Source: Chthonomonadales bacterium (GTDB taxonomy: Bacteria; Armatimonadota; Chthonomonadetes; Chthonomonadales; Chthonomonadaceae). Taken from it: DNA of 37,924 nt. Under the pieces are notes generated by a model. That model saw only the letters and a list, made by a program, of their open reading frames with translations, was not told where the DNA came from and ran no database searches. Shown one piece after another: positions 5,315 through 34,529 of this stretch; position 1 is the first letter of the stretch; every line of letters begins with the position of its first letter. Both the position numbers and the translations under genes were made by a program. Location of the stretch: assembly GCA_038217285.1 (NCBI GenBank), contig JBBQPO010000020.1:1-37924 (forward strand), read 5' to 3'.

Positions 5315-5845
5315 TCAGGATTGCAGCGGCAGGCGCGTCAGAACGAGCAGGAGGACAGCTATGGCAAACAGGGCGAAGACCGCCTCCTCGTCTGGCGAGC
5401 CCGTGACCAGACGCAGGCGACGGGGAACCAGCCACCAGCGCCGGTAGGGGTCGTTGGGCCAGGCGGGGATGCCCGTGCGGGTACTGGAGTCGCCGGCCAG
5501 GTGGCTCGCGTATCCCAGCCACAGCGCCAGGGCGGCCCATGGCCCCCAGAGGACGGCGACAGGGATGCAGACGAGGGCGAACAGGATCAGGCCGAAGGGC
5601 GAGTGCAGCAGGCCCCGGTGCCCCCACGTCCGGTACGCCAGCGTGGAGAGCAGCGCGAACGGGCGCACGTTTCCGATCCGCAGCGACTTGACGGTGCTTT
5701 CCGCCGCGTCCAGGTCGGGCAGGGGCGCCCCGAAGGCGGCGAGCGCGCACAGGGGAACGACCGTCTGCGGGGTGAGGGCATCGGCAAACGGCGTCAGCAG
5801 CCACAGCGAGGCCGCGCCCAGGAAGAGGTGCGTCCTGCCCATCAT
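5315..5845 (-). CDS. YdjM-like membrane-bound metal-dependent hydrolase
   Basis: Motifs GRTH, LPDLD, HRGLLHS, HLAGD..T..GIP, with hydrophobic segments. Confidence 0.85.
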   Translation of the reverse strand: MMGRTHLFLGAASLWLLTPFADALTPQTVVPLCALAAFGAPLPDLDAAESTVKSLRIGNVRPFALLSTLAYRTWGHRGLLHSPFGLILFALVCIPVAVLWGPWAALALWLGYASHLAGDSSTRTGIPAWPNDPYRRWWLVPRRLRLVTGSPDEEAVFALFAIAVLLLVLTRLPLQS

Positions 5846-8901: not shown

Positions 8902-9114
8902 ATGAACCTGCCCATCCCCAACGCCCAGGAAGTCGCTGAATTCCGCCGTCTCTACCAGGAGCGGCGGGGCGTCACGCTCGGCGACCAGGAAGCCCTTGAC
9001 CTCGCTACCCGGTTCCTCCACTTCTACTTCTTCTGCGTAACCCCGCCCCCATGCGATACGCCCTCTACGCACGAAAATCCACCGAAGGCGATGAGCGCCA
9101 GTCCAGTTCCATAG
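8902..9114 (+). CDS. small recombinase-associated protein (70 aa)
   Basis: Conserved in the second copy at 7447; overlaps the recombinase start in another frame. Confidence 0.7.
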   Translation: MNLPIPNAQEVAEFRRLYQERRGVTLGDQEALDLATRFLHFYFFCVTPPPCDTPSTHENPPKAMSASPVP

Positions 9115-10760
9115 CGGACCAGAAGCGCCGCGCCCTGGAGATCGTCCGCGCCAAGGGTATCCACGAGGTCGTTATCATCGAGGAGTCCCGCTCGGCCAAG
9201 GAGGAGGGGCGCCCGGAGTTCCGGAGGATGCTGGCGATGGCCGACGCCGGGGAGATCGACGGCATCCTGGCATGGCATCCGGACCGCCTCTCCCGCAACG
9301 AGATGGACGGGGCGGCGATCACGATGCGCCTGCGCAAGGGGATCCTCAAGGACATGCTGTTCGTCGAGTACTTCTTCCACAACTCGCCGGAGGGGATCAT
9401 GATGCTCCAGATGGCCCTGTCGCAGAGCCAGTACTACTCTTCCAAGCTGGTGATCGACGTGAATCGCGGCCTGCGCAGCAAGATCGAGATGGGATGGTCT
9501 CCCCACAGGGCTCCGCCGGGATACGTCAACAACACGAACGAGCTGAAAGGCCAGAAGACGATCTCTCCCGACCCTGTCCGCTTTCCTATCCTGCGGCGCG
9601 CCTTCGACCACGTCCTCTCCGGCGGCTACACGCCCGCGCAGGTATTGCGGCTCCTGAACGGGGAATGGGGCTATCGCACCCCGCTCACCCGGAAGCAGGG
9701 GGACATCCCGATGACCAAGGCGAGCTTCTACCGCATGCTGCTGAACCCGTTCTACGCCGGGTTCTTCGTCGAGCGGGGAACCCGGCACAAGGGAAGCCAC
9801 CGCCCCATGATCACGCCGGACGAGCACCGCAGGGTCAAGGGGATCCTGGGCGTCAAGGAGCGCCTGCAGCCCAAGCGCCATGCCTTTCCTTATACCGGCG
9901 CTATCCGCTGCCTGCAGTGCGGCTCCCTTATCACGGCCTACATGACTACCAACCGCTACGGGAAACAGTATGCCTATTACCGCTGCCTGCGCTGCACGGG
10001 GCACAACGTCTCCGAGCGCATCCTCCAGCGGCAGATCGACGCGGAGGTGGCGCGCATCCATGTCGTCGAGCCTGAGTTCCGGGCGTGGGCGCAGGAGGCG
10101 CTGGATCGCTTCTGGCAGGAGGACCGGGGTACGGACCGCTCGGTCCAGGAGCAGCAGGCCGCGAGCCTGGCGTCCATCGGGCGGCAGCTGGAGGCGCTGC
10201 TTACCGCGCTGACGAAGGGACTGGTAACGGAAGGGGAGTACGCGCAGAGGAAGGAGGCGCTGTCCGGCGAGCGCGCCCGCCTGCAGGAGGCGACAGTATC
10301 CGACCAGGAACGGGAAGGCCAGGCCCGTTCTACGATGGATAGCCTGCTCGGCTACGTGGCGAACGTCGGGGAGTGGATGGCGGACGGTCCTCCGGAGCAG
10401 CGGCGCGCCTGCCTGCGGTCATTCGGATCTAACTTTCGGCTGGACCGCAAGAAGTTGCTATGGGAGCCCCATTCCCTGCTCGTGCCGGTCCGTGAGAACT
10501 ATAAGCGGCTGTCGGTGGAATACTGGGCAATCAAACACAGCAAAACGCTCTCTGAGAGCGCCAAAACGGCACGTTTAGAGAGCGTTCGTTCCACATGGAG
10601 CGACATGTGGTACCTCAATCAAACTTTATGCCTGCGCAAGGGCCTGTCCTTTCCCAGCTTCTTACCCTGTATGCGGCTGACATCGTTGCCAGCCTCGTTA
10701 GGTAACGAATCAGATACGATATTGGCGACCGACGCCCGTAACGTTCAGGCGGTAGCGTAG
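9051..10760 (+). CDS. large serine recombinase (resolvase + recombinase + Zn-ribbon/coiled coil)
   Basis: YARKS catalytic Ser, DRLSRN, PPGY, LLNPFYAG, CxxCG...YYRC; C-terminal tail overlaps the convergent gene. Confidence 0.95.
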   Translation: MRYALYARKSTEGDERQSSSIADQKRRALEIVRAKGIHEVVIIEESRSAKEEGRPEFRRMLAMADAGEIDGILAWHPDRLSRNEMDGAAITMRLRKGILKDMLFVEYFFHNSPEGIMMLQMALSQSQYYSSKLVIDVNRGLRSKIEMGWSPHRAPPGYVNNTNELKGQKTISPDPVRFPILRRAFDHVLSGGYTPAQVLRLLNGEWGYRTPLTRKQGDIPMTKASFYRMLLNPFYAGFFVERGTRHKGSHRPMITPDEHRRVKGILGVKERLQPKRHAFPYTGAIRCLQCGSLITAYMTTNRYGKQYAYYRCLRCTGHNVSERILQRQIDAEVARIHVVEPEFRAWAQEALDRFWQEDRGTDRSVQEQQAASLASIGRQLEALLTALTKGLVTEGEYAQRKEALSGERARLQEATVSDQEREGQARSTMDSLLGYVANVGEWMADGPPEQRRACLRSFGSNFRLDRKKLLWEPHSLLVPVRENYKRLSVEYWAIKHSKTLSESAKTARLESVRSTWSDMWYLNQTLCLRKGLSFPSFLPCMRLTSLPASLGNESDTILATDARNVQAVA

Positions 10761-11300
10761 CAATTCCGTGCTAACCTTGAAATGGTCGCACATCCTGTCC
10801 CGCGACCACCCTCCGGCAGCATGGTACGCCAAGGCTGGACGCGGCAGCAGAAGGCAGCCTGCAAGCCAGTTCGCCTCTGACTCCTGGACTTCGTTGAACG
10901 AACGGAACGCTACGCCAATTTCGTCCATCATCAGCAGCTGGGCTGGCACGTGCTTTCTGATTATGTGCGCCAGTTCGTGCATGAGGTCGCTGACCTGTCT
11001 GGCGGGGACGTGAGAAGGATTGAGGACAACGACGTCCTTGCTCGCCGCCCGCACCGTTACCGCTGACCACTCGTCCCCTTCAGGCGACACGAGATAGCTC
11101 GCGGCGTCAACGCTCAGGCCGGGCACGTCCCCCGGGTTCCACACAAGAACGTCGAGATGCTTGGCAAGTACGGTAGGGGATAACGGCTCGAATTGTTTCA
11201 GGTTCAGGCTTGATCGTACCGTAACCGCTGTGTTCTCCGACCACGTCTTGAAGCCGCGCTCAAATTTTGTCTGCTGACTGTCTGTGACTGCCAGATTCAT
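10710..11300 (-). CDS. ImmA/IrrE-family Zn metallopeptidase (CapP-like)
   Basis: HELAH (HExxH) and QESEANWLAGCLLLP; overlaps the XRE gene stop. Confidence 0.9.
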   Translation of the reverse strand: MNLAVTDSQQTKFERGFKTWSENTAVTVRSSLNLKQFEPLSPTVLAKHLDVLVWNPGDVPGLSVDAASYLVSPEGDEWSAVTVRAASKDVVVLNPSHVPARQVSDLMHELAHIIRKHVPAQLLMMDEIGVAFRSFNEVQESEANWLAGCLLLPRPALAYHAAGGWSRDRMCDHFKVSTELLRYRLNVTGVGRQYRI

Positions 11301-11659
11301 CCCTGAGTACCCTGCTCCATGGCGCGCTGCACCGCTAGTATTAGTTCAGCAAGTCGCTGCGCCGTTTCTGTATTCATGGTCTTTTCTGCTCGGAAGTGCG
11401 CGAACACGGCTGGTCCAAATCCAGCGGGAGTCTCTTCAGCGGAGCTTGTGGGCATCGCGCAGCCCAGCACTTCTCCTGCGTCTATGCCAAGCCATAGGCA
11501 GATCTTCGCGAACGTATCTAAGTCAGGTTGCTTGCCTGACTCGACCCGGCTCAGGGTGGCGGCGCTGGTGCCTATTTCAGCTGCCACGGCGCGAATGCCG
11601 CGGTTGCCCCTCTTCTCTTTGAGCATCGGCCCAAGTTGCTCGAGCGTGATTCGACTCAT
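11297..11659 (-). CDS. XRE HTH repressor (CapH-like)
   Basis: GIRAVAAEIGTSAATLSRVESGKQPD HTH; immediately upstream of the peptidase and divergent from the defence operon. Confidence 0.9.
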   Translation of the reverse strand: MSRITLEQLGPMLKEKRGNRGIRAVAAEIGTSAATLSRVESGKQPDLDTFAKICLWLGIDAGEVLGCAMPTSSAEETPAGFGPAVFAHFRAEKTMNTETAQRLAELILAVQRAMEQGTQG

Positions 11660-11678
11660 ATTTTGTCCTTTTGCGGGT

Positions 11679-11716
11679 GTTTCACTATTGCAACAGTGTA
11701 TTATATACGGTACAAT
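11679..11716 (+). promoter_or_regulatory. sigma70-type promoter of the MBL operon with an overlapping palindrome
   Basis: TTGCAA-N17-TACAAT (11688-11716); TGTTTC-ACTATT-GCAACA overlaps the -35. Confidence 0.6.
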
Positions 11717-11832
11717 ATGTATGACTAGTAAGACATCGTCTCATTAAGATACGCGTCCATCTTACCACATTCCTGCATTAAGATACTAAGACATGAGTTC
11801 ACTAGCCCGTACGCTTGCCTGAGCAAGGAGAC

Positions 11833-12957
11833 ATGATGCACAAACTTACCTTCCATCCCCTCGGAAATGCCGACTCGACCCGGATTGATCTGGACGGCGG
11901 CATGAAGATTCTTATCGACTATGCCGACATGCGAAACGCGCAGGACAGCGCCGACAAGCGGGTCGACCTCCCTGCCCTCCTGCGGGCGGACCTCGATACC
12001 AGAAACTACTACGACGTGGTCGCCTTCACCCATCTGGACGACGACCACATCCATGGCTCTTCGAGCTTCTTCTATCTTGAGCATGCGTTGAAATACCAGG
12101 ACGAGACCCCGAACAAACGCATCCGCATGAACGAGATGTGGGTTCCGGCCTCCGTTATCGTCGAGGAGCAGTGCGAGGACGAGACGCGCATCATCCAGGC
12201 GGAAGCGCGGCATAGGTTTACCGTCCTCAAGGACCGGATTCGGGTGATCTCCAAACCCGATCGTCTCAAAGAGTGGGTCAGGACGCGGGGCATCGCCTGG
12301 GAGTCGGTCGCCCACCTGATCGTCGACGCAGGAAAAACCGTCCCAGGCTTCACCAAAGCCGAGCAGGGCGTCGAGTTTTTCATCCATTCTCCGTTCTCAG
12401 GCCACGTCGACGCCGGAACGACCGTAGACCGCAACAACTGCTCCCTGGTCTTCCAGGCGACGTTTGTGTCCGGTTTCCGCGAGACGCAACTGATCCTCAG
12501 CGGGGACGTCGAAGACGAGGTGCTTGCGGACATCGTCCGGGTGACGCGCTACCACGGAAACGAGCAGCGGCTCGCCTGGGACGTCATCAAGATACCCCAC
12601 CATTGCAGCTACAAAGCGTTGAACAAAGCGGACAAGGGAAAGGACGAGACCGTCCCGCTCGATTCCGTAAAGTGGCTGTACGAGCAGGGCAAGAGCAGGG
12701 GCATCATCGTCTCCACAAGCTGGCCTGTCCCGACCGACGATGCCAACGCCCAGCCGCCGCACCGCCAGGCAGCCAACTATTACAAGAGGCGGGCTTCCGT
12801 GATCGGCGGCGAGTTCGTCGTCCCCATGGAGGAGCCGACGAAACAGAAGCCCGAAGTCCTGGTCATCGAGATCGATTCGCTGGGAGCGCGCAGGAAAAAG
12901 CAGATCGTCGGCGGCGTTGCGGCGGTAATTTCCCGGCCAGCCCCAAGGGTAGGATAG
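11833..12957 (+). CDS. metallo-beta-lactamase-fold (ComEC-like) protein of a 6A-MBL-type system
   Basis: AAGGAG RBS; GNADS, THLDDDH, SGD, IPHHCS motifs; C-terminus RPAPRVG ends in Gly. Confidence 0.88.
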   Translation: MMHKLTFHPLGNADSTRIDLDGGMKILIDYADMRNAQDSADKRVDLPALLRADLDTRNYYDVVAFTHLDDDHIHGSSSFFYLEHALKYQDETPNKRIRMNEMWVPASVIVEEQCEDETRIIQAEARHRFTVLKDRIRVISKPDRLKEWVRTRGIAWESVAHLIVDAGKTVPGFTKAEQGVEFFIHSPFSGHVDAGTTVDRNNCSLVFQATFVSGFRETQLILSGDVEDEVLADIVRVTRYHGNEQRLAWDVIKIPHHCSYKALNKADKGKDETVPLDSVKWLYEQGKSRGIIVSTSWPVPTDDANAQPPHRQAANYYKRRASVIGGEFVVPMEEPTKQKPEVLVIEIDSLGARRKKQIVGGVAAVISRPAPRVG

Positions 12958-12961
12958 CCAG

Positions 12962-15226
12962 ATGAGTGGCACCGACTACCTGCCGCTGCTTGGGCAGAGC
13001 ACATCCCCGGACGATCTGATCGTTCCGAAGGCGAGGGAACTCGTACGTCTCCTCGAAGCCGACCCGCCCCTTCCGTTCGTTGCGCTGGCGGAATGCCGGC
13101 GTAAAACTGCGGCAGACGGGACTCTTCTGTGGGAAGGAATCGTTTGCGACGTAGAGGCGGAACTTCCGCAGGACCGCCTCTACGATCTCCGAACGGTTGA
13201 GCGCGTCGCCGCCGTGTTTTATGCCACTGACGCCACCTATCCCGACGTTATAGCGCTCCGCCCCGACTTCCCGTTCGCCCCGCATCAGAACGTTCGCGAA
13301 GAGAGGATTCCGAGAAGCCTGTGCCTCTACGAGGAACCGTATCCTGAGGTAAGGCTTAGTTGGACACCCATCGATTTTGTCGAGCGCATCCGCCTGTGGC
13401 TTACCGGCACGGCGACCGGCACGCTCCACCATGCGGATCAGCCCTTAGAGCAACTTATCGGAGGGCATTTCGCTCACCTGGTACTGCCTGCCGACATTTT
13501 TTCGCCGGAGGCCGCTTCTACTATGGAAGTGCTGGACGTAGGAACCGTCGACGCGAGCGAGCAGTTCCTCATCGCGTCCCGCCAGACCGACGAGGCGGCC
13601 CATCAGAACGGCCCCTTTGTCGCGCTCCTTGTCGTTGCGCCTCCCCAGCAGCACGGCATTATCGAGTGCCTGCCTCCCGATCTGGCATCGCTCCACGAAT
13701 TCCTCGCCAAGACCGGCCTCGACCTGCGGGCCATCGTGCGGGATCACATACGGACATGGCTCCCGAACAAGGAAGTCTTGTCCAAAAGGCTGATCCTGGT
13801 CGTCAGCCTGCCTAAGACGCGGGAACTGGGAGGAGCCGTGGAGGTGCTCGAAACGTGGGCCTTCCTCATGCTGGATACGGTACAGGAAGTCGGAGCCCGC
13901 CTCGGTATGCTGGCCGCACAGGGAGGAGTATACGTGCCCCTGATTACCGGCCCTGAGTTGGACGGGGGCGATTGCCAGCTTCTTATGCTTAAGCCTGCCC
14001 TGGGATTCGACAGGGCGGCGGCAGCGCGCATGAACGGAAGCGACGCGCGCTGTGGAAAGCGGATCGTTGCCATCGGCATGGGCGCCCTCGGTTCTCAAGT
14101 CTTCATGAACCTGGTGCGCAGTGCATGGGGCGAGTGGACCGTGGTCGACAAGGACCGGCTGATGCCTCACAACCTGAGTCGGCACGCCCTGCCCGGAGGC
14201 ACCGTCGGGCTACCGAAGGCCGAAGCGATGGCACTGCTTGCAAACTCCACGGTCGAAGGCGAACCCGTCGCTCGGCCGATTACCGCCGATGTGCTACTTC
14301 CTGGGGAACAGTCCGCCGAACTCGAAGCGGCCTTCGGCCACGCTGACCTTATACTCGATATGTCCGCTTCTGTGCCCGTGGAACGTCATCTTGCCCGTGG
14401 CGTATCAGCGTCTGCCCGGCGTGCGTCCCTGTTCCTGAATCCCTCCGGATCTGACCTTGTTATGCTCTTCGAAGACGCCGAGCGGCATATCTCACTTGAT
14501 TTCCTTGAGATGCAGTACTATCGCCACTTGGCCGCGACCGAAGCCTTGTCCTCACATATGGCTAAGGCGGCTGGGCAGGTGCGGTACGCCCGCTCGTGTG
14601 GCGATCTCAGCACGGTGCTGCCTTCGCACCTGATTTCATTCTTTGCCGCTGTCGCGAGCGCCGCGATTCAGGAAGGAGCCAACCGAGACCAGGCTACAAT
14701 CAGTGTCTGGCATACGGACGGCAATCCCGCGAACGGCATGACGCGGCATGATGTCATTGCAGTTGATCCTGTTGTGTTTCGAGCCGGGGAATGGGAAATC
14801 GTTACCGACGCATCAGTTGTTGCCAAGATCGCGGAACAGAGGGCAAAGCGTCTGCCGAACGAGACCGGCGGCGTCCTAATCGGCAGCATCGACACGGAGC
14901 GGAAGGTTATCTACATCGTCGATACGATCCTTTCGCCGTCTGACAGCGTAGAATGGCCGACGCTCTATGTGCGTGGCTTTGTGGGACTGGGTACGGAGAT
15001 CGAGCGCTTCGGCCGACTCAGCGGGAACTGGCTGGGGTACATAGGTGAGTGGCACTCCCACCCGGATGGGTACGGAACCGCACCGAGTCCTGACGACAGG
15101 AGCGCCTTCGAATGGCTTACGCGCCAAATGGTCGCTGAAGGCCGCCCGGCGCTCATGCTTATCGCCGGGGAAAGAGAGATGGGCATCTATGTTGACCGCC
15201 TGCCAGCGGATCTATTGCAGCCTTGA
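12962..15226 (+). CDS. E2-E1(ThiF)-JAB fusion (Cap2/Cap3-like)
   Basis: E2: PHQN...LCLY; E1: GMGALGS, DKD...HNLSRH, K, RYARSC; JAB: ETGGVLIG, GEWHSHP...PSPDD. Confidence 0.92.
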   Translation: MSGTDYLPLLGQSTSPDDLIVPKARELVRLLEADPPLPFVALAECRRKTAADGTLLWEGIVCDVEAELPQDRLYDLRTVERVAAVFYATDATYPDVIALRPDFPFAPHQNVREERIPRSLCLYEEPYPEVRLSWTPIDFVERIRLWLTGTATGTLHHADQPLEQLIGGHFAHLVLPADIFSPEAASTMEVLDVGTVDASEQFLIASRQTDEAAHQNGPFVALLVVAPPQQHGIIECLPPDLASLHEFLAKTGLDLRAIVRDHIRTWLPNKEVLSKRLILVVSLPKTRELGGAVEVLETWAFLMLDTVQEVGARLGMLAAQGGVYVPLITGPELDGGDCQLLMLKPALGFDRAAAARMNGSDARCGKRIVAIGMGALGSQVFMNLVRSAWGEWTVVDKDRLMPHNLSRHALPGGTVGLPKAEAMALLANSTVEGEPVARPITADVLLPGEQSAELEAAFGHADLILDMSASVPVERHLARGVSASARRASLFLNPSGSDLVMLFEDAERHISLDFLEMQYYRHLAATEALSSHMAKAAGQVRYARSCGDLSTVLPSHLISFFAAVASAAIQEGANRDQATISVWHTDGNPANGMTRHDVIAVDPVVFRAGEWEIVTDASVVAKIAEQRAKRLPNETGGVLIGSIDTERKVIYIVDTILSPSDSVEWPTLYVRGFVGLGTEIERFGRLSGNWLGYIGEWHSHPDGYGTAPSPDDRSAFEWLTRQMVAEGRPALMLIAGEREMGIYVDRLPADLLQP

Positions 15227-15497
15227 CTCCGAATGCATGCATGCCAGGAGCCGTGTGGCCAACGCGATGGAACGGGCAGCCGGCCAAGCACAGCCAACTT
15301 TTGGCCATGGCGGCAGATTATGATCGGTGGCGATACGGTATAATCGTGAAGCGATGAAGATGGCAGAATTAGACCGTGAGATGTATGCCAACTCAGATGG
15401 ATCTCCGCACGCCATACGCGCATTAGGACCGGGCATGACAGCCTGATCGTCGACCGCGTGACCGGCGACCTTACTTACAAGATACGGACATCAAAAC

Positions 15498-16367
15498 ATG
15501 AGCGAGACACCCGGAAACCGGCCTCCCCTAGATGTTGAACAGGCGATCGACGTCGTGCTTGCTGCCGCTGCGCATCGTTCCCGGGACGAGCGGCACCGCG
15601 AGTTCGGCAAATGGGTGCTGGAGCGTTATTTCACCAGCTTGCGCGAGGAGTGCAAAGCGGACCTGACGGCAAAGGGGTACCTCGACAACCTCATTGCTTC
15701 AATGGCGAGCGCGGTCCGGGCCTTTTCCGTGGAGCGCGACATCTTCGCGACCAGGTGGTCCGCGCTCGAGAAGGAAAAGCAAGGGCAGATCGAAGCCGCT
15801 AACCGTATCCTGGACTATGCGCCGCTCAAGGAGAAAGGGGTTTGGGGCAAGGCCATCGGGGCCATAGGCGGCAGCGGTATGCTGGTGGCGCTCAGGGCAC
15901 AGTTCCTGCTGAAAGCAAAGGCCGCCCCCTGGATCCCCCTGGCGTTCGCCGCAGCGGGAGCTGTAATCGGTATCGTCCTGCTCGAGATATTGGTCAACCT
16001 GTACCATGACCGCCAGCGCGACAAGATCGAAGACCGGTTTCCGGACCGGATCCAGGAGACGTGGCGGACGGAGACGCTCGTCTCGTACCGGCGGATCATG
16101 CGGCAATTCCTCATCTCAGCACTCAAGATTCGCGAGGAGTATTACCCGGACTTGAGCAGCGTCAGTGGGATGCGCCTGAGCGAACTGCAAGGCTTTCCCC
16201 ACGTCCAGTTTGCGGGGGAGAAAGCCGAGGGTGACACGCCCTGGGCGGCAATAGACGCGTCTATCGATCCGATCATCGAACGCCATTTCGCCTTCGACAC
16301 CAAAGCGAGCATGGTCGAGTATCCTGTACGGCTGAATTTTTGGCCGTTCAACAGGAAGAAGGGGTAG
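15498..16367 (+). CDS. hypothetical protein with about two transmembrane helices
   Basis: 289-aa ORF with two central hydrophobic segments; TATAAT at ~15339. Confidence 0.75.
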   Translation: MSETPGNRPPLDVEQAIDVVLAAAAHRSRDERHREFGKWVLERYFTSLREECKADLTAKGYLDNLIASMASAVRAFSVERDIFATRWSALEKEKQGQIEAANRILDYAPLKEKGVWGKAIGAIGGSGMLVALRAQFLLKAKAAPWIPLAFAAAGAVIGIVLLEILVNLYHDRQRDKIEDRFPDRIQETWRTETLVSYRRIMRQFLISALKIREEYYPDLSSVSGMRLSELQGFPHVQFAGEKAEGDTPWAAIDASIDPIIERHFAFDTKASMVEYPVRLNFWPFNRKKG

Positions 16368-18253: not shown

Positions 18254-18311
18254 GTTCAGCCGAGCGTTTTGCGATAATGGGGCAGCCTATAGGAAGCGGA
18301 CCCGAAACGCC

Positions 18312-18620
18312 ATGCCCCGTGGGACCCCACGCCTGAGAACACAAGAGAACAAGGTCAACCAGATCGGGCCGCGTGTGCGGCTGCGGCGGCAGGCTCTCAA
18401 TGTCAAGCAGGACGAACTGTGTGCACGGCTGGCCTTGCAGACGGACGGCGGCTGGAGCCCGGCCTGGCAGGACGTGTCCCGCATCGAGAACGGCGCGCGG
18501 ATCGTGTCGGACCTTGAGATACTGGCCCTCGCGCAGGCCCTGGAGTGTTCAGCCTGCTGGCTGCTGGCAGGGGAGAAGGCGGTGCCGGAGGGTACCCCAG
18601 GCATCCGGCGGGCGGTCTGA
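18312..18620 (+). CDS. XRE-family HTH transcriptional regulator
   Basis: IGPRVRLRR...QDELCARL...VSRIENGAR...LAQALECSACWLL; true start ATG 18312. Confidence 0.85.
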   Translation: MPRGTPRLRTQENKVNQIGPRVRLRRQALNVKQDELCARLALQTDGGWSPAWQDVSRIENGARIVSDLEILALAQALECSACWLLAGEKAVPEGTPGIRRAV

Positions 18621-18875
18621 AGCCCGTTCCAGTCCAGAACATCGACGAAGCTTATCTCCTGGTCCCGGCGCAGCAAAGGAATACGGGCGCAGGACGCTCG
18701 ACTACAAGCATTTCTGGCCGCTTTGATGACCTCCCCGGAACCGTGCTGATCCTTACTATCGTATCCCGCCCGATTAACGCTCCGATAATGGTACACTGTA
18801 TGCCTGTTCGTCAGCGGGAAGCTGACGAAGCCTGCAAGCGCCGTTGGCGTGGTGTATGGCGGAGAGGGCAGGACA

Positions 18876-20300
18876 TTGGAGCGTCAATTTGTTATGGATC
18901 TCGAAAAGGGCGACCTTGTACGGTCCCGTTTTGCTATTGTCAACGCGCAGCAGAGTTCTGGCAAAAACCCTCATAAATTTACTCTGCGGGACCGTTCTGG
19001 CGACATTGGCGCAAAAGCGTGGCCGTCGACGCCGGGAGTATCGTGGGAAGAGGTGGCTCTGGCGGACTATGCCGACGTAACCGGCAAGGTCGAGTACAGC
19101 GACTACACGAAGGGCCTGGAAATAAAAGTAGATACGTTCGCGAACGTGGCCGATCCCGGCGACCTCGCGGACTTCCTTCCGACCACTCCTGCCGACAGGG
19201 AGGAGCTCTGGAACGGCGTGAAAGGCCTGGTAAAATCGCTAGCCGACCCTTATTTGGGAAAGCTGATGAGGAACCTGTTCAAGGATCCGACGTTCCAGCA
19301 GGCTTACCGGACGGCACCGGCAGCCCAGCATATGCACCACCCATATATCGGCGGCCTGCTGGAACATTCGTTCGAAGTCGCCTCCCTTTGCGACGCCCTG
19401 GCGATTACGCTGGGGGACGTCGACCGGGACCTTCTGGTCGTCGCGGCGCTCCTGCACGACATCGGAAAGATCGAGGAGATCGATTACGCTTCCCCCCACT
19501 TCGGCCCGACGCGTACCGGAGGCATGCTGGGACACGTGTTCCTGGGCGCGCAACGGATTTACAGTACCTTGGGCCAGATCAAGGGTTGCCCCGACGGCCT
19601 TCCCGATATGCTCTGCCACCTTCTCCTCAGCCATCAGGGGAAGCTGGAGTGGGGGGCGCCGGTCGCGCCGTGCACCCACGAGGCGGCCGTACTGCATCTC
19701 TGCGACCACCTGAGCGCGCAGGGCTTCTATTACCGCCAGGCGAGGCAGGGGACAGTGGCAGGGTCTCTCTTCAAGCGGGTAAAGGGCTTGGAAGGACACG
19801 TCTTCACCGGCGAACCTTCGTGGCGTACCTATGCGGCTCCGACGCCTGCAGACGAACGGGAGGAGGCAGTACAAAACGCTGCTCCGCACCTGCGCATGGT
19901 AGGCGGGACCCACGAACCGGCACTCGTGTTCCTGCCGCTGCTCGGTCGGATTGCCGCCGGCGTGCCGACTGACGCCCAGGCGAACCTGGAAGGCCGTTTC
20001 GCGGTGCCGCAAACGGGCAAAGTTCAGGAGGGCGACTTTCTGCTCCGCGTCAGCGGCGACAGCATGATCGACGCCCATATCCTGGACGGGGACGTCGTCC
20101 ACGTGCGGCCAACGGCCGAGGCAGCCCACGGCGCTATAGTCGTCGCCCTATCTGACGGCGAGAGTACGGTCAAGTACCTCATAAAGGAGGAAGGCACGGC
20201 CTTCCTACGCGCGGCCAACCCGGCGTACGGAGACATCGTGCCTTCGCAGGAACTCCAGGTACAGGGAATCGTTGTCGGCGTACTGCGCGGCTTCTGCTGA
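18876..20300 (+). CDS. YhaM/CBF1-like OB-fold + HD nuclease fused to a LexA-type S24 autopeptidase
   Basis: LRDRSGDI (OB); PAA..MHH..GGLLEHS, LLHDIGK, SHQG..EWG (HD); GRIAAGVP, GDSM, TVK (S24); likely TTG start 18876. Confidence 0.9.
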   Translation: MERQFVMDLEKGDLVRSRFAIVNAQQSSGKNPHKFTLRDRSGDIGAKAWPSTPGVSWEEVALADYADVTGKVEYSDYTKGLEIKVDTFANVADPGDLADFLPTTPADREELWNGVKGLVKSLADPYLGKLMRNLFKDPTFQQAYRTAPAAQHMHHPYIGGLLEHSFEVASLCDALAITLGDVDRDLLVVAALLHDIGKIEEIDYASPHFGPTRTGGMLGHVFLGAQRIYSTLGQIKGCPDGLPDMLCHLLLSHQGKLEWGAPVAPCTHEAAVLHLCDHLSAQGFYYRQARQGTVAGSLFKRVKGLEGHVFTGEPSWRTYAAPTPADEREEAVQNAAPHLRMVGGTHEPALVFLPLLGRIAAGVPTDAQANLEGRFAVPQTGKVQEGDFLLRVSGDSMIDAHILDGDVVHVRPTAEAAHGAIVVALSDGESTVKYLIKEEGTAFLRAANPAYGDIVPSQELQVQGIVVGVLRGFC

Positions 20301-20724
20301 CGCAGGGAGGGCAGCCCACCAAGAAGCCGCGCCCTATCCGTTCAGTATCGTCACTGCGCCTCGTGCGGGCTCGCCGAATCCGTGAAAAGAGTCATGTCCG
20401 TAGCGAGGCTGGCATGCGGATAGAGTTGCTCTCCCAGCCGGCGGGACACGACATATGCTGACAGGGCCTCTTCCAATGAAAACAGGTGCGTACCGGCGAG
20501 GTGGGTCACCTCGTGCTTGGACGCGCTGTACACGGCAGCAAACCTATCGATCTGCCCGTAGAGAAGGGGCCCTATTCGACGGCTGACCACGGGAACGCGC
20601 AAGGCCGCGCCTAACGGCAGCCATCCGACGCGCCCGATACGCTTGACCAGGGTCTCGATGTGGAGACCGCTCATCTGGACAACATCACGCGCGAACCAGT
20701 CGAGATCCCCTTCTCTATTGACGT

Positions 20725-22129
20725 TTAGACTATCAGTTCGACTTTCGTGTCGTCCTTTTTGCTCTTGAAGACCGTCGGGTAACGCTGCGCCTTCTTGACG
20801 ATCGCACCTTTGAAACGCCCCGGTGAATTTCCCCGCACTTGGGACAAGCGAGCGGGCGTTCCCAACTCGGCAACAATTCGGTTCATCCCCCGACGCACCT
20901 GCTGAGGCGTCTGCGGACGCGTCGCCGACTCCCAGGGTTGACGGTGAGCCAAGCCGCTTTCCCGCGCCAGATACAACTGGTTCTCCGCACAACAGACCAG
21001 ATCCGTCCATAACGTGAAGCGCTCGGGCGTGCGCAGATGCACCCGCTCCCAGAGCAAGTCTTGCTTCTTGAAACGAAAACCATGTTCGATATAGTAGCGG
21101 CGCGCATAGGTCGCAGAAACCTCTTCCAACGGCGGGCATTCCTCTCCGCAGAAGAGGAACCAACTCACCCGAGGATCGCGCTTGTTGTCCTTTGCGCCAT
21201 GGCGAGTTACGCGCAGCAGCGAAACCGTGATATGACGTGCCTCCTGGAAATGCAATCCGTCCCAACGGTCCACTTCCAGACGCTTCCCGCGGTCATCGGT
21301 GCCTTCCCAATGGGCATCGGCGTCGCCGTGGGTGGTCGGCTCGGCGCATCGAAAGACCGCTCCATCTTCGGGAGGACGGCCCGGCCCCGGCTTGTCCGGA
21401 CGCAGCGGCTTGGGTCGATAGAGCACCCGGTTCTTGGCGAGCCTGAGGAGGCGATCATAGGCAATATCGTAGGTTTTGAGAAGGAAGGCCACGTTGCCAT
21501 AGCCTCCATCTCCCAAAAAGAGCGGGCGCACGTCCAGCAAAGCAGTCAACTGTTTTATACTAACGGCGCATGAGAAACTGGCGATTACGCGCCCGGAATG
21601 AACAGCACGACTTCGTGATTTTGACGTGCCGTTAGTATAACTGATCGCCCATCGTTTCGACGGGTGTTTTCTCGCTTGGGATGCGCTCGACATCCAGGGT
21701 GTAGACCCAACTGCTCGCCTCCGTCGGCACGACCGCCACAAAGGAGAATTGCCAGCCAGGTCGGACAGGCTTGGCTCCTTCAGGCAGGTTGGACTGATGC
21801 ACATAAGTACAGTCGCGTGCCGTGGCGGACGCCGGTCTGGCAATGGAACTGGCATCTCCTGCGAGCACCAGTCGCGTTCCTGCAGTGGGCTTGGGTGCAT
21901 AGTTGACGCGGAGTTTGCGCAACTCTTCTCGGTCGATCGCTCCGTCTTTGCAGGCGGCATAGGCACTAGACCATTCCCTCACAAAGAAGGGGGAGAGCGT
22001 GAGTTCGACAAATGAGTGCGCGGCGGTATCGGTAAGCAGCGCATCATTTAGGTTCATGAGCGCGTCGCCTGCCCGCAAGAAGCACGCGTACATTTTGTTG
22101 CGGTAGTCGGAAAGTGTGCTATGCTTCAT
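20725..22129 (-). pseudogene. DDE transposase disrupted by a MITE
   Basis: AAGGAG RBS; motifs LAGDAS, LGDGGYG, YARRYYIEHGFRFKKQ; frame broken at 21556-21639. Confidence 0.88.
21558..21637. mobile_element. 80-bp MITE with TA target duplication (IS630/Tc1-type ends)
   Basis: Ends TACTAACGGC / GCCGTTAGTA flanked by TA on both sides; removal restores the reading GDQLKQLT. Confidence 0.88.
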
Positions 22130-22871
22130 GGGGTATGTTCTCTCCTTAGACAAGAAGAACAATACCCGATGGGGCAGCTTCTCACAGTCATAAACGGCTA
22201 CGAGAGGTTGCCCTTTAGTCTAAACGTCAATTCTCTACAACCCTGGCTGAAATACATAGCACAGTACTGGAGCGGCCGGAATACGTCCCGGTCAACGACA
22301 TCAGCTACGCAGGCATTGTGGACATGCAAGCGTCCAAAGCTCGGCCCGCCTAAGTCGTCGTCGAAGAGGGCCAGAGTGGCATACGTTAATGCCGGGGATG
22401 CTGCCAACCGAAGCAGCTTTTCCTGTTCCTGGACGGAAAGCAGTTCCCCTGCCAAATTCGACAACCGTCCTGCATACGCTCCCATATATCCTCCAGCCGT
22501 GCACTCCACTGTGCCCTCGGACGCTTCCAAGTATTGACAGAAGGGCCGGAGGGAAGGTTTCGCCAATTCTCTTTCTCCTTCACGAATCCACCGCCCGTCC
22601 CTGCGCCAAAGTGTGTCCTCGTCCTCCGTCCTCCAAAGGCGGGTGCAAGAAGAGCTTCTGTCTGCGCGCGGTACGAATGCCGAGAGAAGGGGAGCATCCT
22701 TACCAAAGAGTGTTCTTTCGTGCCGGGGCAGTCCGGCAAATTGCTTCCCGTCGGCCTTCAAGCCAACACTTCAGTCGATGTCTCCCTCATTCAAATCGTA
22801 GTCCCCAGCAGGCGGGGCAGGCTTTTTACGCCGATCTTTCTAGCGTAGGAGAGCACAAATAACCCATGACT

Positions 22872-28592: not shown

Positions 28593-29063
28593 ATGCGAGA
28601 GTACACGCCGCTCTTTGTCGGCTATGGGACTTTGGAAAAATGGATGCAGTCGCTGCTCCCGGACAGGCCGGTCCTCGCGATGCCGCTGGTCGAGCCCGGA
28701 CCGGAACAGTCCGGCATGCGGACAGACACCCTCGCCGTGGTCTGCCAGCAGATCGATGCGGACGGCCATGTCCATTACTGCCGCCTGCGGGCAGCCAGCC
28801 TGACCCGCTGCTGGGGCGAACCGTTCTCTGCGGACTGGCGGGAGCGGGAAGCGGCCTGGCGCTCGCTGTGGGACGCCGTGCAGGAGATCCTCCGGGAGCG
28901 CGGACTGACGTACCGGGGCGCGACAGTGGCACCGCCGCCACTGTTGCGGTTCCTGGAAGCGCAGGCCGAAGGCATCGCTTTCGATCCCGCCGCGAAACGG
29001 TTCGTGTGCCAAAGCGCAGAGATAGCGAGACCATCATTCATCGAAGGGGAACTGAAGCGATGA
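28593..29063 (+). CDS. hypothetical protein (156 aa)
   Basis: GAGGA RBS before ATG 28593; ATGA overlap with the next gene. Confidence 0.7.
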   Translation: MREYTPLFVGYGTLEKWMQSLLPDRPVLAMPLVEPGPEQSGMRTDTLAVVCQQIDADGHVHYCRLRAASLTRCWGEPFSADWREREAAWRSLWDAVQEILRERGLTYRGATVAPPPLLRFLEAQAEGIAFDPAAKRFVCQSAEIARPSFIEGELKR

Positions 29064-29368
29064 GCATCCTTATGGAGCAGTACGACCAGACACGCGACGA
29101 CTTCCCGCAAGCAATCGTGCTGATGCGGGTCGGGGACTTCTTCGAAGCCTACGGCGAAACGGCAGCGCAGCTCGCGGAGACGCTTGGGCTTACGCTCACC
29201 CAGCGCGAGGGAGGCCCAATGTGCGGAATTCCCCACCACATGGCCGAGAAGCGGGTGGCACAGCTTGTCGCCAACGGCAGGCAGGTCGTTCTCATGGAGC
29301 AATCCGAAGATCCGCGAGGAAAGCCTCTTGGCGATGTCGCGCGACACTGTGTGCAGTTCAACCCATAA
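29060..29368 (+). CDS. stand-alone MutS domain I (mismatch-binding domain) protein
   Basis: MEQY...IVLMRVGDFFEAYG...LGLTLT...PMCGIPHH...LV..G..V...EQ; 102 aa with no ATPase. Confidence 0.9.
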   Translation: MSILMEQYDQTRDDFPQAIVLMRVGDFFEAYGETAAQLAETLGLTLTQREGGPMCGIPHHMAEKRVAQLVANGRQVVLMEQSEDPRGKPLGDVARHCVQFNP

Positions 29369-29622
29369 CCTACTGATTTCGGAGCACCGGACAGGGGTAT
29401 ACGATGCGAGTAGAGGCGACGCCGTCACAGAGAACGGGCGCTTCCAGAACATGGTCGCTCAGGAGCACCAACCTTAGCGCTTCCCCGGTGCCGCAAGAAG
29501 AGGCGCGGCACCCGTACATCATCCGCCCGTATGCCGAATCTTGGCATACGGGCTTTTTCCTGACGTTCCAGGGACCTCGCGGCCCTCGCTGCAGACTATC
29601 GAGCCCGCGTGTTGCAGGATAG

Positions 29623-29890
29623 AAGGCAGCCGCTTCGCCTACGTACGGTTCTCCGGAGCATGATGCCCGCCTCTCCGCTTGGCAGGGATGCCAGATCTTC
29701 GCAGACTTTTTCTTTTTTACGGGCCGGGCGACGCTTTGCCGTGGTAGCCTACGTGTGTATCTGGAAACGTTCGCCGTGCCGGGACGTGCCGCTGACAGCA
29801 ATAGGAAGAGACGACGGAGGCGACTGTCGTGCACAATCGGTGCGTCGGGTGTGTCCTTTCTCCTTGTCGTTTCGCGGCGGGTATGCGGAG
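29623..29890. other. putative oriT region
   Basis: Non-coding gap before the mob operon; GCAC-AATCG-GTGC hairpin followed by GTCGGGTGT (29831-29852) resembles MOBF nic sites; T-rich tract. Confidence 0.5.
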
Positions 29891-29898
29891 GGAATTCC

Positions 29899-30411
29899 AT
29901 GTTCAGCAAACAGGAAGCGGCGGACTTCCTCGGTGTCAGCAAACGGACGCTGGAACGCTATGCCAGTCAGGGCCGCGTCCGGGCCATATACAGGAAAGGC
30001 CGGGGCCATCCGGTCCCTGAGTACGAAGAAGAAGACCTTTTGTCCCTCAAAGCAGGCCTGGAACCGGCGCTGTCGCCTCCTCCGGGGAAGGCCCTTCCAT
30101 CATCGGAACCGCTCAGCTTTCGGCTGGACGAGCACTACCTCAAGCGGCTCGGCGAGGAAGGCGAAAAGCGGGGAATAAGCGCAGGAGCCTACGCCCGTTT
30201 GCTGGTGATCGACGCGCTGGAGGAGGGAGAGCGGGAGCGGCTGCGGGGCGATGTGGCGGAGCTAAGGCGGCTTGTGGTGCTGATCGGCGAAGACCTGGCG
30301 AGCGCGACGCTAGCCCTCCTCGTCCACGGCGGCAACGTCGAGCAGGAACCGGAAGCGCGGGACTGGGTGCTCGCGAACCTCCTGACAGCGGGCGGGCGAA
30401 AGAAGGAATAG
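29899..30411 (+). CDS. relaxosome accessory protein: excisionase-like HTH + ribbon-helix-helix
   Basis: SKQEAADFLGVSKRTLERY (HTH_17); LSFRLDEHYLKRL...RGISAGAYARLLV (RHH); GGAGG RBS. Confidence 0.8.
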   Translation: MFSKQEAADFLGVSKRTLERYASQGRVRAIYRKGRGHPVPEYEEEDLLSLKAGLEPALSPPPGKALPSSEPLSFRLDEHYLKRLGEEGEKRGISAGAYARLLVIDALEEGERERLRGDVAELRRLVVLIGEDLASATLALLVHGGNVEQEPEARDWVLANLLTAGGRKKE

Positions 30412-30415
30412 GAAG

Positions 30416-32833
30416 ATGCTCTCGGTAGCGGCGATGGGAAGCGGGCAGGGGGAATACTATATCGGGCTCGCACAGGCGGACTATTACGCGGCAGGCGGCG
30501 AACCGGAGGGGCGCTGGATAGGCCGAGGAGCCGAAAGGTGGGGTCTCGCCGGAACGGTCGAGGCGGAAACGTTCCGCAACCTGCTGACCGGCCGTTCCCC
30601 AGACGGGCAGAGGAGCCTGACCGGAAAGGGGAACGGGCGTGGCCATCGTCCAGGATACGACCTCACGTTCAGCGCCCCGAAGAGTTTCAGCGCCCTCTGG
30701 GCGGTATCCGGACCGTCGCGCCAAAGCCTGTTGGAGAGCATCCATACTCGTGCCGTGAAAACCGCGATCGACTATATCGAGGACAAGGCCGCCTATACCA
30801 GGCGTGGCAAAGGGGGCGTGAAACTGGAGCGTGTGGGCCTGGTCGTCGCGGCGTTCGAGCACGAATCGTCCCGGTCGCTGGACCCGCAGATGCACACGCA
30901 TGCCCTTGTTATGAACGTCGCCCCCAGGGTGGACGGGACGACGGGCACGATCGAGAGCTTTCTGCTCTTCCAACACAAGATGGATGCCGGAGCGATCTAC
31001 AGAGCGGAACTGGCGGCGCTGCTGGCAGGAGAACTCGGGCTGGACTGCGTTCCGGACGGCACCTCCTTCCGGATCGAAGGGGTGCCGCAGGAACTGTGTC
31101 AGGCGTTCTCCAGGCGCCGGGAGCAGATCCTGGAAGCGCTGGATCGGCGGCGCGCGGAGGGCGCGCGGGCCGCCGCCACGGCGGCACTGGATACGCGGGC
31201 CGCAAAGGTGTCTGTATCGCACGAGCGCCTGCTCGGCCAGTGGCAGGCCGTCGGGCGGGGCTACGGCTTCGCCCAGGACCGGGCGGACCGGCTCAAAGGC
31301 GGGCAGGTACGGTATCCGAGCGTCAGCCCAGAAACCGTCGCCCGCATGGCCGTCGGGGAGATCACGCAGCGCCAGAGCTGCTTCACCGAGCGCGAAGTCG
31401 TGCGGAAGGTAGCGGAACTGGCCCCGGTTTGCGGCATGGACGCCGCCGCTGTCCGGTCAGCGACTACAACGTACCTGCGCTCGCCGGAAGCGGTTCGCCT
31501 GGGGCCTCCCGCTCCCGAAGCGATCTATACGACGCGGGAGATGCTGGACCTGGAGGAAGGCATGCTCGCCTGCGCCAGGCGGCTGCGCATCGGGGCGTTC
31601 CATAGGCTGAAGGAAGAGACGCTGCAGACGGTTTTCGCGGAGCGCCCGCGCCTGGGATACGAGCAGCAGAACGCCCTGCGCCATATCGCCCGGAAACCGG
31701 GAAACATCCATGTTATCTCCGGGCTCGCGGGCACCGGCAAGACCTCCCTGGCAGAAGCGATGCGCCTCTGCTTCGAGCGGGAAGGGTACCGGGTTGTCGG
31801 GGCAGCGCCGTCAGCGAAGGCGGCACGGGGCTTACAGGAAGGGGCAGGCATCCGGTCGGACACCCTGCACCGGACGCTCTTCGACCTGAGCCACCCGGAT
31901 TGCGGGCTGTCGCCCAAAAGTGTGGTCGTCCTCGACGAAGCCGGAATGGTCGGAACCCGGCAGATGGCAGAACTGCTCGACATCGTGGAGCACGCAGGCG
32001 CGAACCTCGTCCTGATCGGCGACGCGCGGCAGCTGCAGCCGATCAATGCCGGAGGGGCATTCGCGGCCCTTGGTGCCGAACTCGGCCAGGCGGAACTCAC
32101 CCGCATCGCGCGGCAACACGAGAAATGGCAGCGTGAGGCCGTTGTCAGCATGGCGGAAGGCGATGCGGCGGCAGCGCTCGGGGCTTATGCGGATCACGGT
32201 CAGGTCCGGATCGAGGAGGACCGGATCGGCGCGATGCGCGCCCTGATCGCGGACTGGCGGAAAGAGGACGCGCTTCCGGAGAAGGACCGCCTGATCTTCG
32301 CGGCGACGAATCGGGACGTGGGACTTTTGAACCTGCTCGCCCAGCGGGCACTCCAGGAGGACGGCGCGCTCGGGCAGCGGAAGGCCGCGGTCGGCGACGT
32401 GACGGTCTTCGAGAACGACCGCGTGTTGTTCGTCAGGAACGACCGGGTGCGCGGCGTGCAGAACGGATCGCTCGGCACGGTCTCCAGCATCGGCAGCGGC
32501 ATCGTGGCGGTCCGACTGGACTCGGGCACGGTGGTGAGCTTCCCGGCGGAGGCGTACCGCCACCTGCGCCTCGGCTACGCCGTGACGACCCACAAGGGCC
32601 AGGGCGTAACGGTCGAACACGCTTCCGTGTTGCTTGGTGCGGACATGCAGGACCGGGAGCTCTCCTATGTCCAGCTCTCCCGCTCGCGCGGGGGAACGAT
32701 GCTGTACGCGGACCGGGATTCGGCGGGCGAGGAACTCGCTGACCTGGTAGGGCGGATGGGCGTCTCGCACCGGAAGGAGATGGCCCTGGATACGCTGGCG
32801 CGGCAGGGACAGGCCCTGTCGCTCGCACGGTAA
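30416..32833 (+). CDS. mobF: MOBF (TrwC-like) relaxase-helicase
   Basis: EYY...DYY, GYDLTFSAPKS, HESSR..DPQMHTH; helicase GLAGTGKT, LDEAGM, GYAVTTHKGQG. Confidence 0.95.
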   Translation: MLSVAAMGSGQGEYYIGLAQADYYAAGGEPEGRWIGRGAERWGLAGTVEAETFRNLLTGRSPDGQRSLTGKGNGRGHRPGYDLTFSAPKSFSALWAVSGPSRQSLLESIHTRAVKTAIDYIEDKAAYTRRGKGGVKLERVGLVVAAFEHESSRSLDPQMHTHALVMNVAPRVDGTTGTIESFLLFQHKMDAGAIYRAELAALLAGELGLDCVPDGTSFRIEGVPQELCQAFSRRREQILEALDRRRAEGARAAATAALDTRAAKVSVSHERLLGQWQAVGRGYGFAQDRADRLKGGQVRYPSVSPETVARMAVGEITQRQSCFTEREVVRKVAELAPVCGMDAAAVRSATTTYLRSPEAVRLGPPAPEAIYTTREMLDLEEGMLACARRLRIGAFHRLKEETLQTVFAERPRLGYEQQNALRHIARKPGNIHVISGLAGTGKTSLAEAMRLCFEREGYRVVGAAPSAKAARGLQEGAGIRSDTLHRTLFDLSHPDCGLSPKSVVVLDEAGMVGTRQMAELLDIVEHAGANLVLIGDARQLQPINAGGAFAALGAELGQAELTRIARQHEKWQREAVVSMAEGDAAAALGAYADHGQVRIEEDRIGAMRALIADWRKEDALPEKDRLIFAATNRDVGLLNLLAQRALQEDGALGQRKAAVGDVTVFENDRVLFVRNDRVRGVQNGSLGTVSSIGSGIVAVRLDSGTVVSFPAEAYRHLRLGYAVTTHKGQGVTVEHASVLLGADMQDRELSYVQLSRSRGGTMLYADRDSAGEELADLVGRMGVSHRKEMALDTLARQGQALSLAR

Positions 32834-32846
32834 GGGAGGATCGGAT

Positions 32847-34481: not shown

Positions 34482-34529
34482 GAGAGAAGGGCCCGGGAAC
34501 GGCCCATTACTTACGGAAGGAGAACGCTA

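Follow-up and report, generated by a model that had tools for sequence, protein, structure and literature searches.

Self-cleavage by S24 peptidase domains is textbook knowledge for the repressors LexA and CI and for the UmuD protein. Domains of the LexA type dimerize and cut their own chain at an Ala-Gly bond when bound to RecA filaments on single-stranded DNA (ssDNA; such filaments are referred to as RecA*), and the N-terminal fragment of LexA ends in Val-Ala-Ala (V-A-A). Cleavage of LexA has been described to expose latent ClpX signals, through which the N-fragment is destroyed by ClpXP (PMC10584840, citing Neher et al. 2003). As presented in a structural study, YhaM of Bacillus subtilis is a 3'-deoxyribonuclease specific for single-stranded 3' ends, which forms a D3 hexamer ring assembled from dimers around DNA, is needed for transformation and DNA uptake, and is transcriptionally controlled by LexA; the authors of that study postulate a regulatory partner whose identity they leave open (PMC12107432). 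Here, we analyzed a stretch of 37,924 nucleotides (nt) from a Chthonomonadales bacterium (assembly GCA_038217285.1, contig JBBQPO010000020.1, positions 1 to 37,924 of the forward strand; hereafter the window) and examined one gene in it, which encodes a YhaM-type nuclease, composed of an OB-fold and an HD domain, fused to a LexA-type S24 domain. Both of its modules are well known; of their arrangement we found no description. No account of YhaM joined to an S24 peptidase was found in the literature searched, which covered few subscription journals and left supplements out, and this agrees with a first-pass annotation of the same DNA, made from the letters alone, which knew of no characterization of this architecture.

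Domain make-up of the fusion protein

The fusion comprises a YhaM-type OB+HD region at residues 4-304, a linker of about 40 residues, and a LexA-type S24 region at residues 346-466 (the numbering throughout is that of the ATG form of 468 amino acids (aa), starting at 18894). An AlphaFold2 (AF2) model built on 28 homologues has a mean predicted local distance difference test (pLDDT) score of 81.7 and shows an OB barrel (residues 8-84), a helical HD region (91-285), a low-confidence linker (about 305-343) and a beta-rich S24 domain (344-464). That a single open reading frame (ORF) joins an OB+HD nuclease to an S24 domain, as the first-pass annotation had put it, is borne out by Pfam, NCBIfam, solved relatives, AF2 and Foldseek. 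The three motifs it had pointed out are located at residues 351-356 (GRIAAG), 388-391 (GDSM) and 425-427 (TVK), and its statement that a DNA-binding helix-turn-helix (HTH) is lacking also holds, as none is present among the six Pfam families matched at E<=0.1.

The extent listed for the gene in Table 1 is probably the true one. The TTG at 18876 is in frame and yields 474 aa, and the motif GGAGAGG lies 9-15 nt upstream of it; alternative starts are the ATG at 18894 (468 aa, protein P0001) and a GTG at 18849 (483 aa, ORF 18849..20300, + strand). Because the N-terminus read from the TTG (MERQFV.DLEKGD) matches that of the homologues (M.SRKQFVAELK.SGD) in both length and pattern, position 18876 is probably the true start.

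The match of the N-terminal half to the NCBIfam YhaM model NF010007 covers positions 9-307 of 314 of the profile. The nearest solved chains found by sequence are B. subtilis YhaM (9h3f, 2e-32) and Staphylococcus aureus Cbf1/YhaM (9o7t, 3e-25), and a Foldseek search with the AF2 model led from the HD part to YhaM 9h3f, with a TM-score of 0.75 on the target. By its sequence, this half is a distant member of the YhaM family and not an equivalog. The extended HD metal site reported for B. subtilis YhaM consists of H163, H193, D194, H250, H251 and D274 (PMC12107432). Five of these six ligands have predicted equivalents in the window protein (H158, H188, D189, H247 and D271), and the residue corresponding to H251 is Gln248 (19635-19637).

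The Pfam match of the C-terminal half to PF00717 reaches 94.6 bits (gathering cut-off 23.3) and covers the whole profile, positions 1-116 of 116. Residues 346-466 also match the NCBIfam lexA model TIGR00498 from position 79 to 201 of 203, that is, over the C-terminal domain alone (1.5e-30). The score of 106.3 bits is just below the cut-off of 110.95, compared with 67.3 bits against a cut-off of 110 for UmuD (NF007621), and by these profile scores the S24 part resembles LexA and not UmuD. Its identity to the C-terminal domain of LexA from the same genome is 40% (5e-23), and the two share the cleavage strand LPL.G.IAAG.P. Solved LexA C-terminal domains match the tail by sequence at about 6e-19, and Foldseek matched it to the LexA C-terminal domain on the RecA filament with TM-scores of 0.83-0.87. 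A homodimer prediction with two full-length copies scored 0.33, with the mark set at 0.42 and controls at 0.00, and was counted neither for nor against dimer formation.

A search with the S24 part retrieved 13 YhaM fusions, 10 proteins with a LexA DNA-binding domain, one fusion to a UvrD-type helicase (P0275) and three other short proteins. From these results, the S24 tail of the YhaM fusions looks like a separate capture from LexA. No S24 domain was detected on proteins longer than 819 aa at E<=1e-6, which is weak evidence. The helicase fusion P0275 (799 aa) is an observation in its own right: it combines a UvrD-type helicase with an HSDR_N-like domain, and its C-terminal S24 domain is 41% identical to that of the window protein.

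Recurrence, conservation and distribution of the fusion

Among the best 120 proteins of a word-indexed protein search, 28 carry both PF00717 and PF01966, with 31-59% identity to the window protein. An exhaustive search of 1.84 billion cluster representatives gave 676 proteins at E<=1e-30, and domain hidden Markov models of our own identified fusions in 38 of the best 150. In total, 63 of the 264 proteins collected have both domains; one of these is incomplete, leaving 62 full-length fusions with 27-59% identity. The fusion ORF is intact in each of the 20 other loci examined. A chimeric assembly was considered as an explanation and is ruled out, because homologous intact fusions recur (20 other genomes, 62 fusions in all) and a separately assembled public contig, which may stem from the source sample, spans the HD-to-S24 junction with 0 differences over 18300-20068. 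The first-pass annotation had asked for such a search for homologues of this architecture, and had named a chimeric assembly or a lack of homologous fusions as outcomes that would speak against its reading; the assembly proved not to be chimeric and homologous fusions were collected.

Both sets of catalytic residues are strongly conserved. Each of the HD ligands H158, H188, D189, H247 and D271 is present in 62/62 full-length fusions, and position 248 is occupied by His in 55, Gln in six and Pro in one. In the S24 part, Ser390 is kept in 62/62, Lys427 in 61/62, and Ala355 and Gly356 in 60/62 each. At P3, before the predicted cut, 31 fusions have I, 24 have V and five have A. The gap between the two domain matches varies between 32 and 99 residues (median 48).

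Trees of both halves were built. In the tree of the YhaM part (263 rows), fusions are found in two clades, in which they make up 49 of 56 rows (support 90) and 14 of 16 rows (support 99), and the fusion label requires 8 changes, compared with 56.7 in shuffles. Two apparently stand-alone rows in the clade of the window protein, of 285 and 331 aa, are possibly fragments of fusions. In the tree of the S24 part, which also contained 48 LexA C-terminal domains, the label requires 3 changes (35.7 in shuffles), and the window protein falls inside a 13-row clade consisting entirely of fusions (support 97). Since fusions cluster in both domain trees, the two halves have long been inherited together, and the S24 part may have a single origin.

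Of 401 genomes sampled from the window's phylum, probably Armatimonadota, at least 27 have a full-length fusion. The carriers belong to the families designated f1 (2/32), f2 (1/21), f9 (3/3), f14 (10/23) and f29 (11/29), and the fusion homologues that carry names are all metagenome-assembled genomes labeled Chthonomonadaceae or Armatimonadota. Three other phyla were reached via loci titled Anaerolineae, Actinomycetota and Acidobacteriota. No full-length fusion was found in these 3 x 301 genomes, at thresholds that would miss the most distant fusions: there were 0 matches at 1e-48, and the 18 and 15 matches at 1e-45 all span the YhaM part alone. Neither a full-length copy nor any place covering >=80% of the query was found in plasmid (72,556) and phage (50,697) records. 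With the closest relatives (57-59% identity), the matches listed from genome and metagenome contigs, which show generic HD/S24 patterns, include no full-length fusion. By these searches, the fusion is a conserved family confined, as far as sampled, to one phylum.

Searched with the YhaM part at E<=1e-8, 27/27 carriers gave the fusion and nothing else (two fusions in one of the genomes), and a full-length LexA above the family cut-off is present in 26 of the 27. A canonical LexA that includes a winged-helix domain is encoded beside rplJ/rplL at C197 of the window's genome, and the genome also encodes RecA (contig C5) and ClpX. The possibility that the fusion is a LexA substitute was rejected on account of the canonical LexA in the same genome and in 26/27 carriers. 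On gene content, the fusion stands in for YhaM and not for LexA, and in most carriers it is the only YhaM of the cell. As it is the sole YhaM in every carrier and nearly all carriers also have LexA, it does not take the place of LexA, and in general it is not a dedicated defense gene.

Self-cleavage and the fate of the nuclease

Given the recurrent architecture, the conserved active sites, the lack of an HTH, and the presence of RecA, LexA and ClpX in the genome, a coupling between the nuclease and the SOS response by self-cleavage is the natural reading, in line with the first-pass annotation, which had inferred a nuclease switched on or off by SOS. We therefore propose, and give it a little better than an even chance, that self-cleavage stimulated by RecA* couples the fate of a YhaM nuclease to the SOS signal. 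The nuclease half would act as a metal-dependent 3'-5' exonuclease of the YhaM family on single-stranded DNA or RNA ends. The S24 domain, held on a flexible tether, would dimerize as in LexA, sense RecA* and cut its own chain at Ala355-Gly356, parting the nuclease (residues 1-355) from the S24 domain. In this way, the fate of the nuclease would track SOS through the protein itself and not through a LexA-controlled promoter. After the cut, the nuclease would end in (I/V)-A-A on a flexible tail, an end of the kind that ClpX recognizes on the LexA N-fragment, and ClpXP might then remove the nuclease for as long as RecA filaments last, sparing the 3' single-stranded tails for recombinational repair. 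For the direction of the switch, we lean slightly towards this OFF version over an ON version, because it needs no specific contact between the domains and would protect 3' tails; the sequence itself cannot decide between the two.

Promoter regions were compared for control at the transcriptional level, using lexA loci of the window's family (L132-L161) and a further set (L243-L262). In f29, 11 lexA promoters carry CGAACATCYGTTGCC immediately after the -10 box, with the pattern GAAC-N4-GTT, which is presumably a box of the kind known from Gram-positive bacteria. At <=3 mismatches, CGAACATCYGTTGCC is absent from the 350 nt upstream of all nine f29 fusion genes examined, and no LexA-box-like site was found upstream of the window's fusion gene. 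In the window's family, the lexA promoters compared (30 genomes) have TTGACA-17-TAnAGT followed by AGTAGACGnnAGTGCGT and often by N10-ACGTAC. Because both patterns derived from these promoters occur in the window's genome at lexA only, no operator can be defined in this family. The lexA promoters of f14 carry TATACTGTGAACAACTTTT. CGAACATCYGTTGCC, AGTAGACGnnAGTGCGT and TATACTGTGAACAACTTTT are candidate LexA operators, and within a single phylum they vary from family to family. Upstream of the fusion gene, a scan for sigma-70 promoters gave no promoter-like site on the + strand, and no RNA data set was listed for 18300-20400. There is no sign in these regions of transcriptional control of the fusion by LexA, and since no LexA-box-like site lies upstream of it, any SOS link would be post-translational.

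Several points weigh against the proposed coupling. The YhaM score of the nuclease half, 130.7 bits, is far under the NCBIfam equivalog cut-off of 460, and the Pfam OB family (tRNA_anti-codon) is matched at only 4.4e-4 (20.6 bits, under the cut-off of 27). The nuclease of the window copy may be altered, given Gln at the position of B. subtilis His251. The (I/V)AA end is dictated by the substrate site of the protease itself and hence provides no independent evidence of a degron. Cleavage, its dependence on RecA*, nuclease activity and stability of the fusion are all predicted from sequence. In addition, RecA-independent action has been reported for some S24 proteins (PMC7101444), and SOS raises yhaM expression in B. 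subtilis, as would be expected for an ON rather than an OFF switch (PMC12107432).

An ON switch following the logic of UmuD is the most probable of the alternatives, and we regard it as rather unlikely. The uncleaved form would be inactive, with S24 dimers hindering assembly of the ring or access of the substrate, and cleavage by RecA* would free the exonuclease at RecA filaments, either for end processing or for eroding the ssDNA that induces SOS. It draws on the same structural evidence as the self-cleavage proposal, and the B. subtilis study supplies two further arguments: LexA cleavage derepresses yhaM there, so that SOS means more YhaM, and the assembly of YhaM from dimers to a hexamer around DNA is a step that a dimeric tail could control (PMC12107432). 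However, a linker of this length and variability (32-99 residues), modeled with low confidence, is more in keeping with a tether or a degron than with a specific auto-inhibitory contact.

Returning to coupling by self-cleavage in general, we also consider a more specific form of it, which remains speculative and is in our judgment rather unlikely. The S24 tail might be a docking-and-release device: a ring-forming 3'-5' ssDNA exonuclease would be lodged in the RecA-ssDNA filament groove and then cut loose there, so that RecA* would gate an enzyme eroding the filament's own DNA. If true, docking and release would amount to a protein-level terminator of recombination or SOS, or to a trap for incoming conjugative or transforming ssDNA, and it would supply the regulator that the YhaM structural study called missing.

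Genomic setting and comparison with known systems

ORF clustering of 21 loci revealed no neighbor common to the fusion loci beyond close relatives. In three f9 loci, hrcA adjoins the fusion. One or two Macro-domain genes (of the ADP-ribose binding/hydrolase type) follow it on the same strand in four f29 loci (L121 7300-8420, L122 7311-8488, L127 9264-9809 and L130 9439-9999), and GNAT acetyltransferase genes lie nearby in three f29 loci (L121, L122 and L130). A protein of 1,160-1,200 aa combining IrrE(M78), UvrD and PD-(D/E)XK domains is encoded 1.5-1.7 kb from the fusion in 3/21 loci, including one in a genome of the same genus. IrrE-type domains are found near five of the 21 loci: these three (L116, L119 and L124) and, as IrrE/HTH pairs, the window and L117. 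In one locus, the fusion is flanked by an IrrE/HTH pair, an EVE gene and a BamHI-type restriction-modification (R-M) system, and others are near ScaI- or Eco57I-type R-M genes, a PIN gene or TnpB. About half of the contexts are of the housekeeping kind (e.g., hrcA, NAD synthase, RNase III, GAPDH).

In the window (Table 1), the fusion is strain-specific accessory cargo of a mobilizable element; three genomes of the same genus gave no DNA match to the fusion gene. The region 28640-36627 forms the backbone of the mobilizable element. A type IV secretion ATPase was not detected anywhere in the window, and the ends of the element are marked by neither a tRNA nor a repeat of more than 39 nt. The XRE-type HTH gene next to the fusion is a possible local regulator of it, and it is not conserved in the 20 other loci. 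Copies related to the insertion sequence (IS) directly downstream are present in genomes of the same genus. A short element (about 85 nt, at about 21555-21641, within 20708-21641) occurs at no fewer than 17 places in one such genome with 74-95% identity, and may be an IS end or a repeat resembling a miniature inverted-repeat transposable element. Farther upstream, an IrrE/M78 and HTH gene pair is divergent from a run of three + strand ORFs (10713-16364). Judging from its gene content, this region looks like a ubiquitin-like conjugation defense operon under CapH/CapP-type regulation, in which no nucleotide cyclase was detected.

Table 1. Features of the fusion gene and its surroundings. Coordinates refer to the window unless a locus is named; functional assignments are predictions.
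Feature	Residues	Coordinates	Strand	Basis or remark
OB-HD-S24 fusion gene, probable extent		18876..20300	+	ORF list, upstream GGAGAGG, N-termini of homologues; stop codon included
YhaM-like span	4-304	18903-19805	+	NCBIfam NF010007, 5.8e-38
OB-fold, predicted nucleic-acid binding barrel	8-84	18915..19145	+	AF2 strands with pLDDT ~88-93; inside YhaM NCBIfam match
HD phosphohydrolase/nuclease domain	156-275	19359..19718	+	Pfam HD (PF01966), 7.5e-17
HD dyad	His188-Asp189	19455..19460	+	residue alignment to 9h3f; other ligand equivalents H158, H247, D271
Variable linker	305-343	19806..19922	+	pLDDT <50 at 329-341
LexA-type S24 autopeptidase domain	348-461	19935..20276	+	Pfam Peptidase_S24, 4.2e-27
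Predicted scissile bond in LPLLGRIAAG	Ala355-Gly356	19956..19961	+	aligns with LVPLIGTIAAG of the genome's own LexA
Predicted nucleophile (GDSM)	Ser390	20061..20063	+	kept in 62/62
Predicted general base (TVK)	Lys427	20172..20174	+	kept in 61/62
XRE-family HTH protein, 102 aa		18312..18617	+	255 nt upstream of fusion; Pfam HTH_31 5.4e-6, HTH_3 1.3e-5
IS transposase (DDE), two overlapping ORFs (20728-21966 and 21635-22162)		20728..22162	-	Pfam DDE_Tnp_1 / DDE_5; directly downstream of fusion
Mrr-type restriction endonuclease		5845-6666	-	PADLOC PDC-S02 and type IV restriction endonuclease matches
Serine recombinase		9051-10757		
IrrE/M78 protease		10713-11300	-	weak capP-like match
HTH protein beside IrrE/M78 protease		11300-11659	-	
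380-aa protein		11815-12954	+	weak LmuA/Avs1a-like N-terminal matches
754-aa E2 + E1(ThiF) + JAB fusion		12962-15223	+	
289-aa protein		15498-16364	+	
MutS domain I-only protein		28640-29365		
HTH_17 excisionase-like protein		29755-30408		
TrwC relaxase-helicase		30416-32830		
TrwB-type coupling protein		32847-34478		
Tyrosine integrase		35389-36627		
Dual-specificity phosphatase domain		36826-37548	-	filed by Pfam under polymorphic toxin systems
IrrE/M78-UvrD-PD-(D/E)XK proteins of other loci		L116 4627-8229; L119 6393-9944; L124 3480-6959		

This setting bears on an idea raised in the first-pass annotation, a defense effector, abortive infection or element control. Spelled out, the fusion would be a dedicated anti-phage or anti-plasmid effector, in which ssDNA of an invader and RecA* would release a toxic nuclease (abortive infection), or which the element would use against incoming ssDNA. 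The window copy sits on strain-specific mobile DNA with a relaxase, a coupling protein, an integrase, an Mrr-type nuclease, an IrrE/HTH pair beside E2-E1-JAB, and an IS, and about 9 of the 20 other loci have R-M, PIN, TnpB or IrrE-type genes within 3.5 kb (L112, L115, L116, L117, L118, L119, L122, L124 and L131). However, no neighbor is conserved across the 21 loci, the other loci lie amid housekeeping genes, the fusion is the sole YhaM homologue in every carrier, and no full-length copy came from the plasmid or phage collections. PADLOC-DB 2.0 assigned the fusion to no defense-system model and gave only weak Cas3-HD/dGTPase matches over the HD motif region, the best at 8.7e-7. A dedicated role in defense is thus possible in the window and not general; as an account of the whole family it is unlikely, and the first-pass idea is not supported in that form.

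Still less probable is that the S24 domain serves as a constitutive dimerization or maturation module, with any self-cleavage independent of RecA and of DNA damage. LexA C-terminal domains do dimerize in solved structures, and RecA-independent S24 regulators have been reported (PMC7101444), but a mere dimerization tag needs neither an Ala-Gly site nor a Ser-Lys dyad, yet these are kept in 60-62 of the 62 fusions down to 27% identity. The LexA decoy also suggested at first pass, in which the fusion, having an intact LexA-like C-terminal domain and no DNA-binding domain, would compete with LexA for RecA* and tune SOS induction with the nuclease being incidental, is highly improbable, because it would leave the invariant nuclease active site (62/62) unexplained, and the replacement of stand-alone YhaM in all 27 carriers likewise points to the nuclease as the selected function.

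If the fate of the nuclease is indeed coupled to SOS by self-cleavage, a nuclease covalently wired to an S24 sensor would represent a different use of the SOS response, in which an enzyme acting on the very ssDNA ends that RecA binds is placed under direct proteolytic control. In view of the unexplained SOS link of YhaM and the regulator postulated for it (PMC12107432), such a natural fusion may serve as a "Rosetta stone" pointing to RecA*. It also concerns a poorly studied phylum.

Compared with known systems, the N-terminal OB+HD part matches YhaM/Cbf1 (9h3f, 9o7t) over the whole of YhaM with its metal ligands aligned, and a link to SOS would be shared with B. subtilis yhaM, which is LexA-regulated (PMC12107432). 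In contrast to YhaM, with which it is about 25-30% identical, the fusion has an extra 160 residues (linker and S24 domain) and, in the window copy, Gln in place of one His ligand, and its SOS link would be proteolytic rather than transcriptional. With LexA it shares the LPL.G.(I/V)AAG cleavage strand, the Ser of GDSM, the Lys of TVK, and the fold of LexA bound to the RecA filament, whereas it lacks the winged-helix DNA-binding domain and carries an enzyme as its N-terminal cargo. Repressors of the phage lambda CI type have the S24 fold and a RecA*-triggered cut that parts an N-terminal functional domain from an oligomerizing C-terminal domain (Foldseek matches 2hnf and 8gmu), but they are HTH repressors, and the identity in structural alignments is 24-26%. 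The fusion would resemble UmuD in being an S24 protein whose self-cleavage regulates the activity of an enzyme and not a promoter; in UmuD, however, a short N-terminal arm is removed and the protein acts as a subunit of its own, while the fusion has a whole enzyme covalently attached upstream of the predicted cut.

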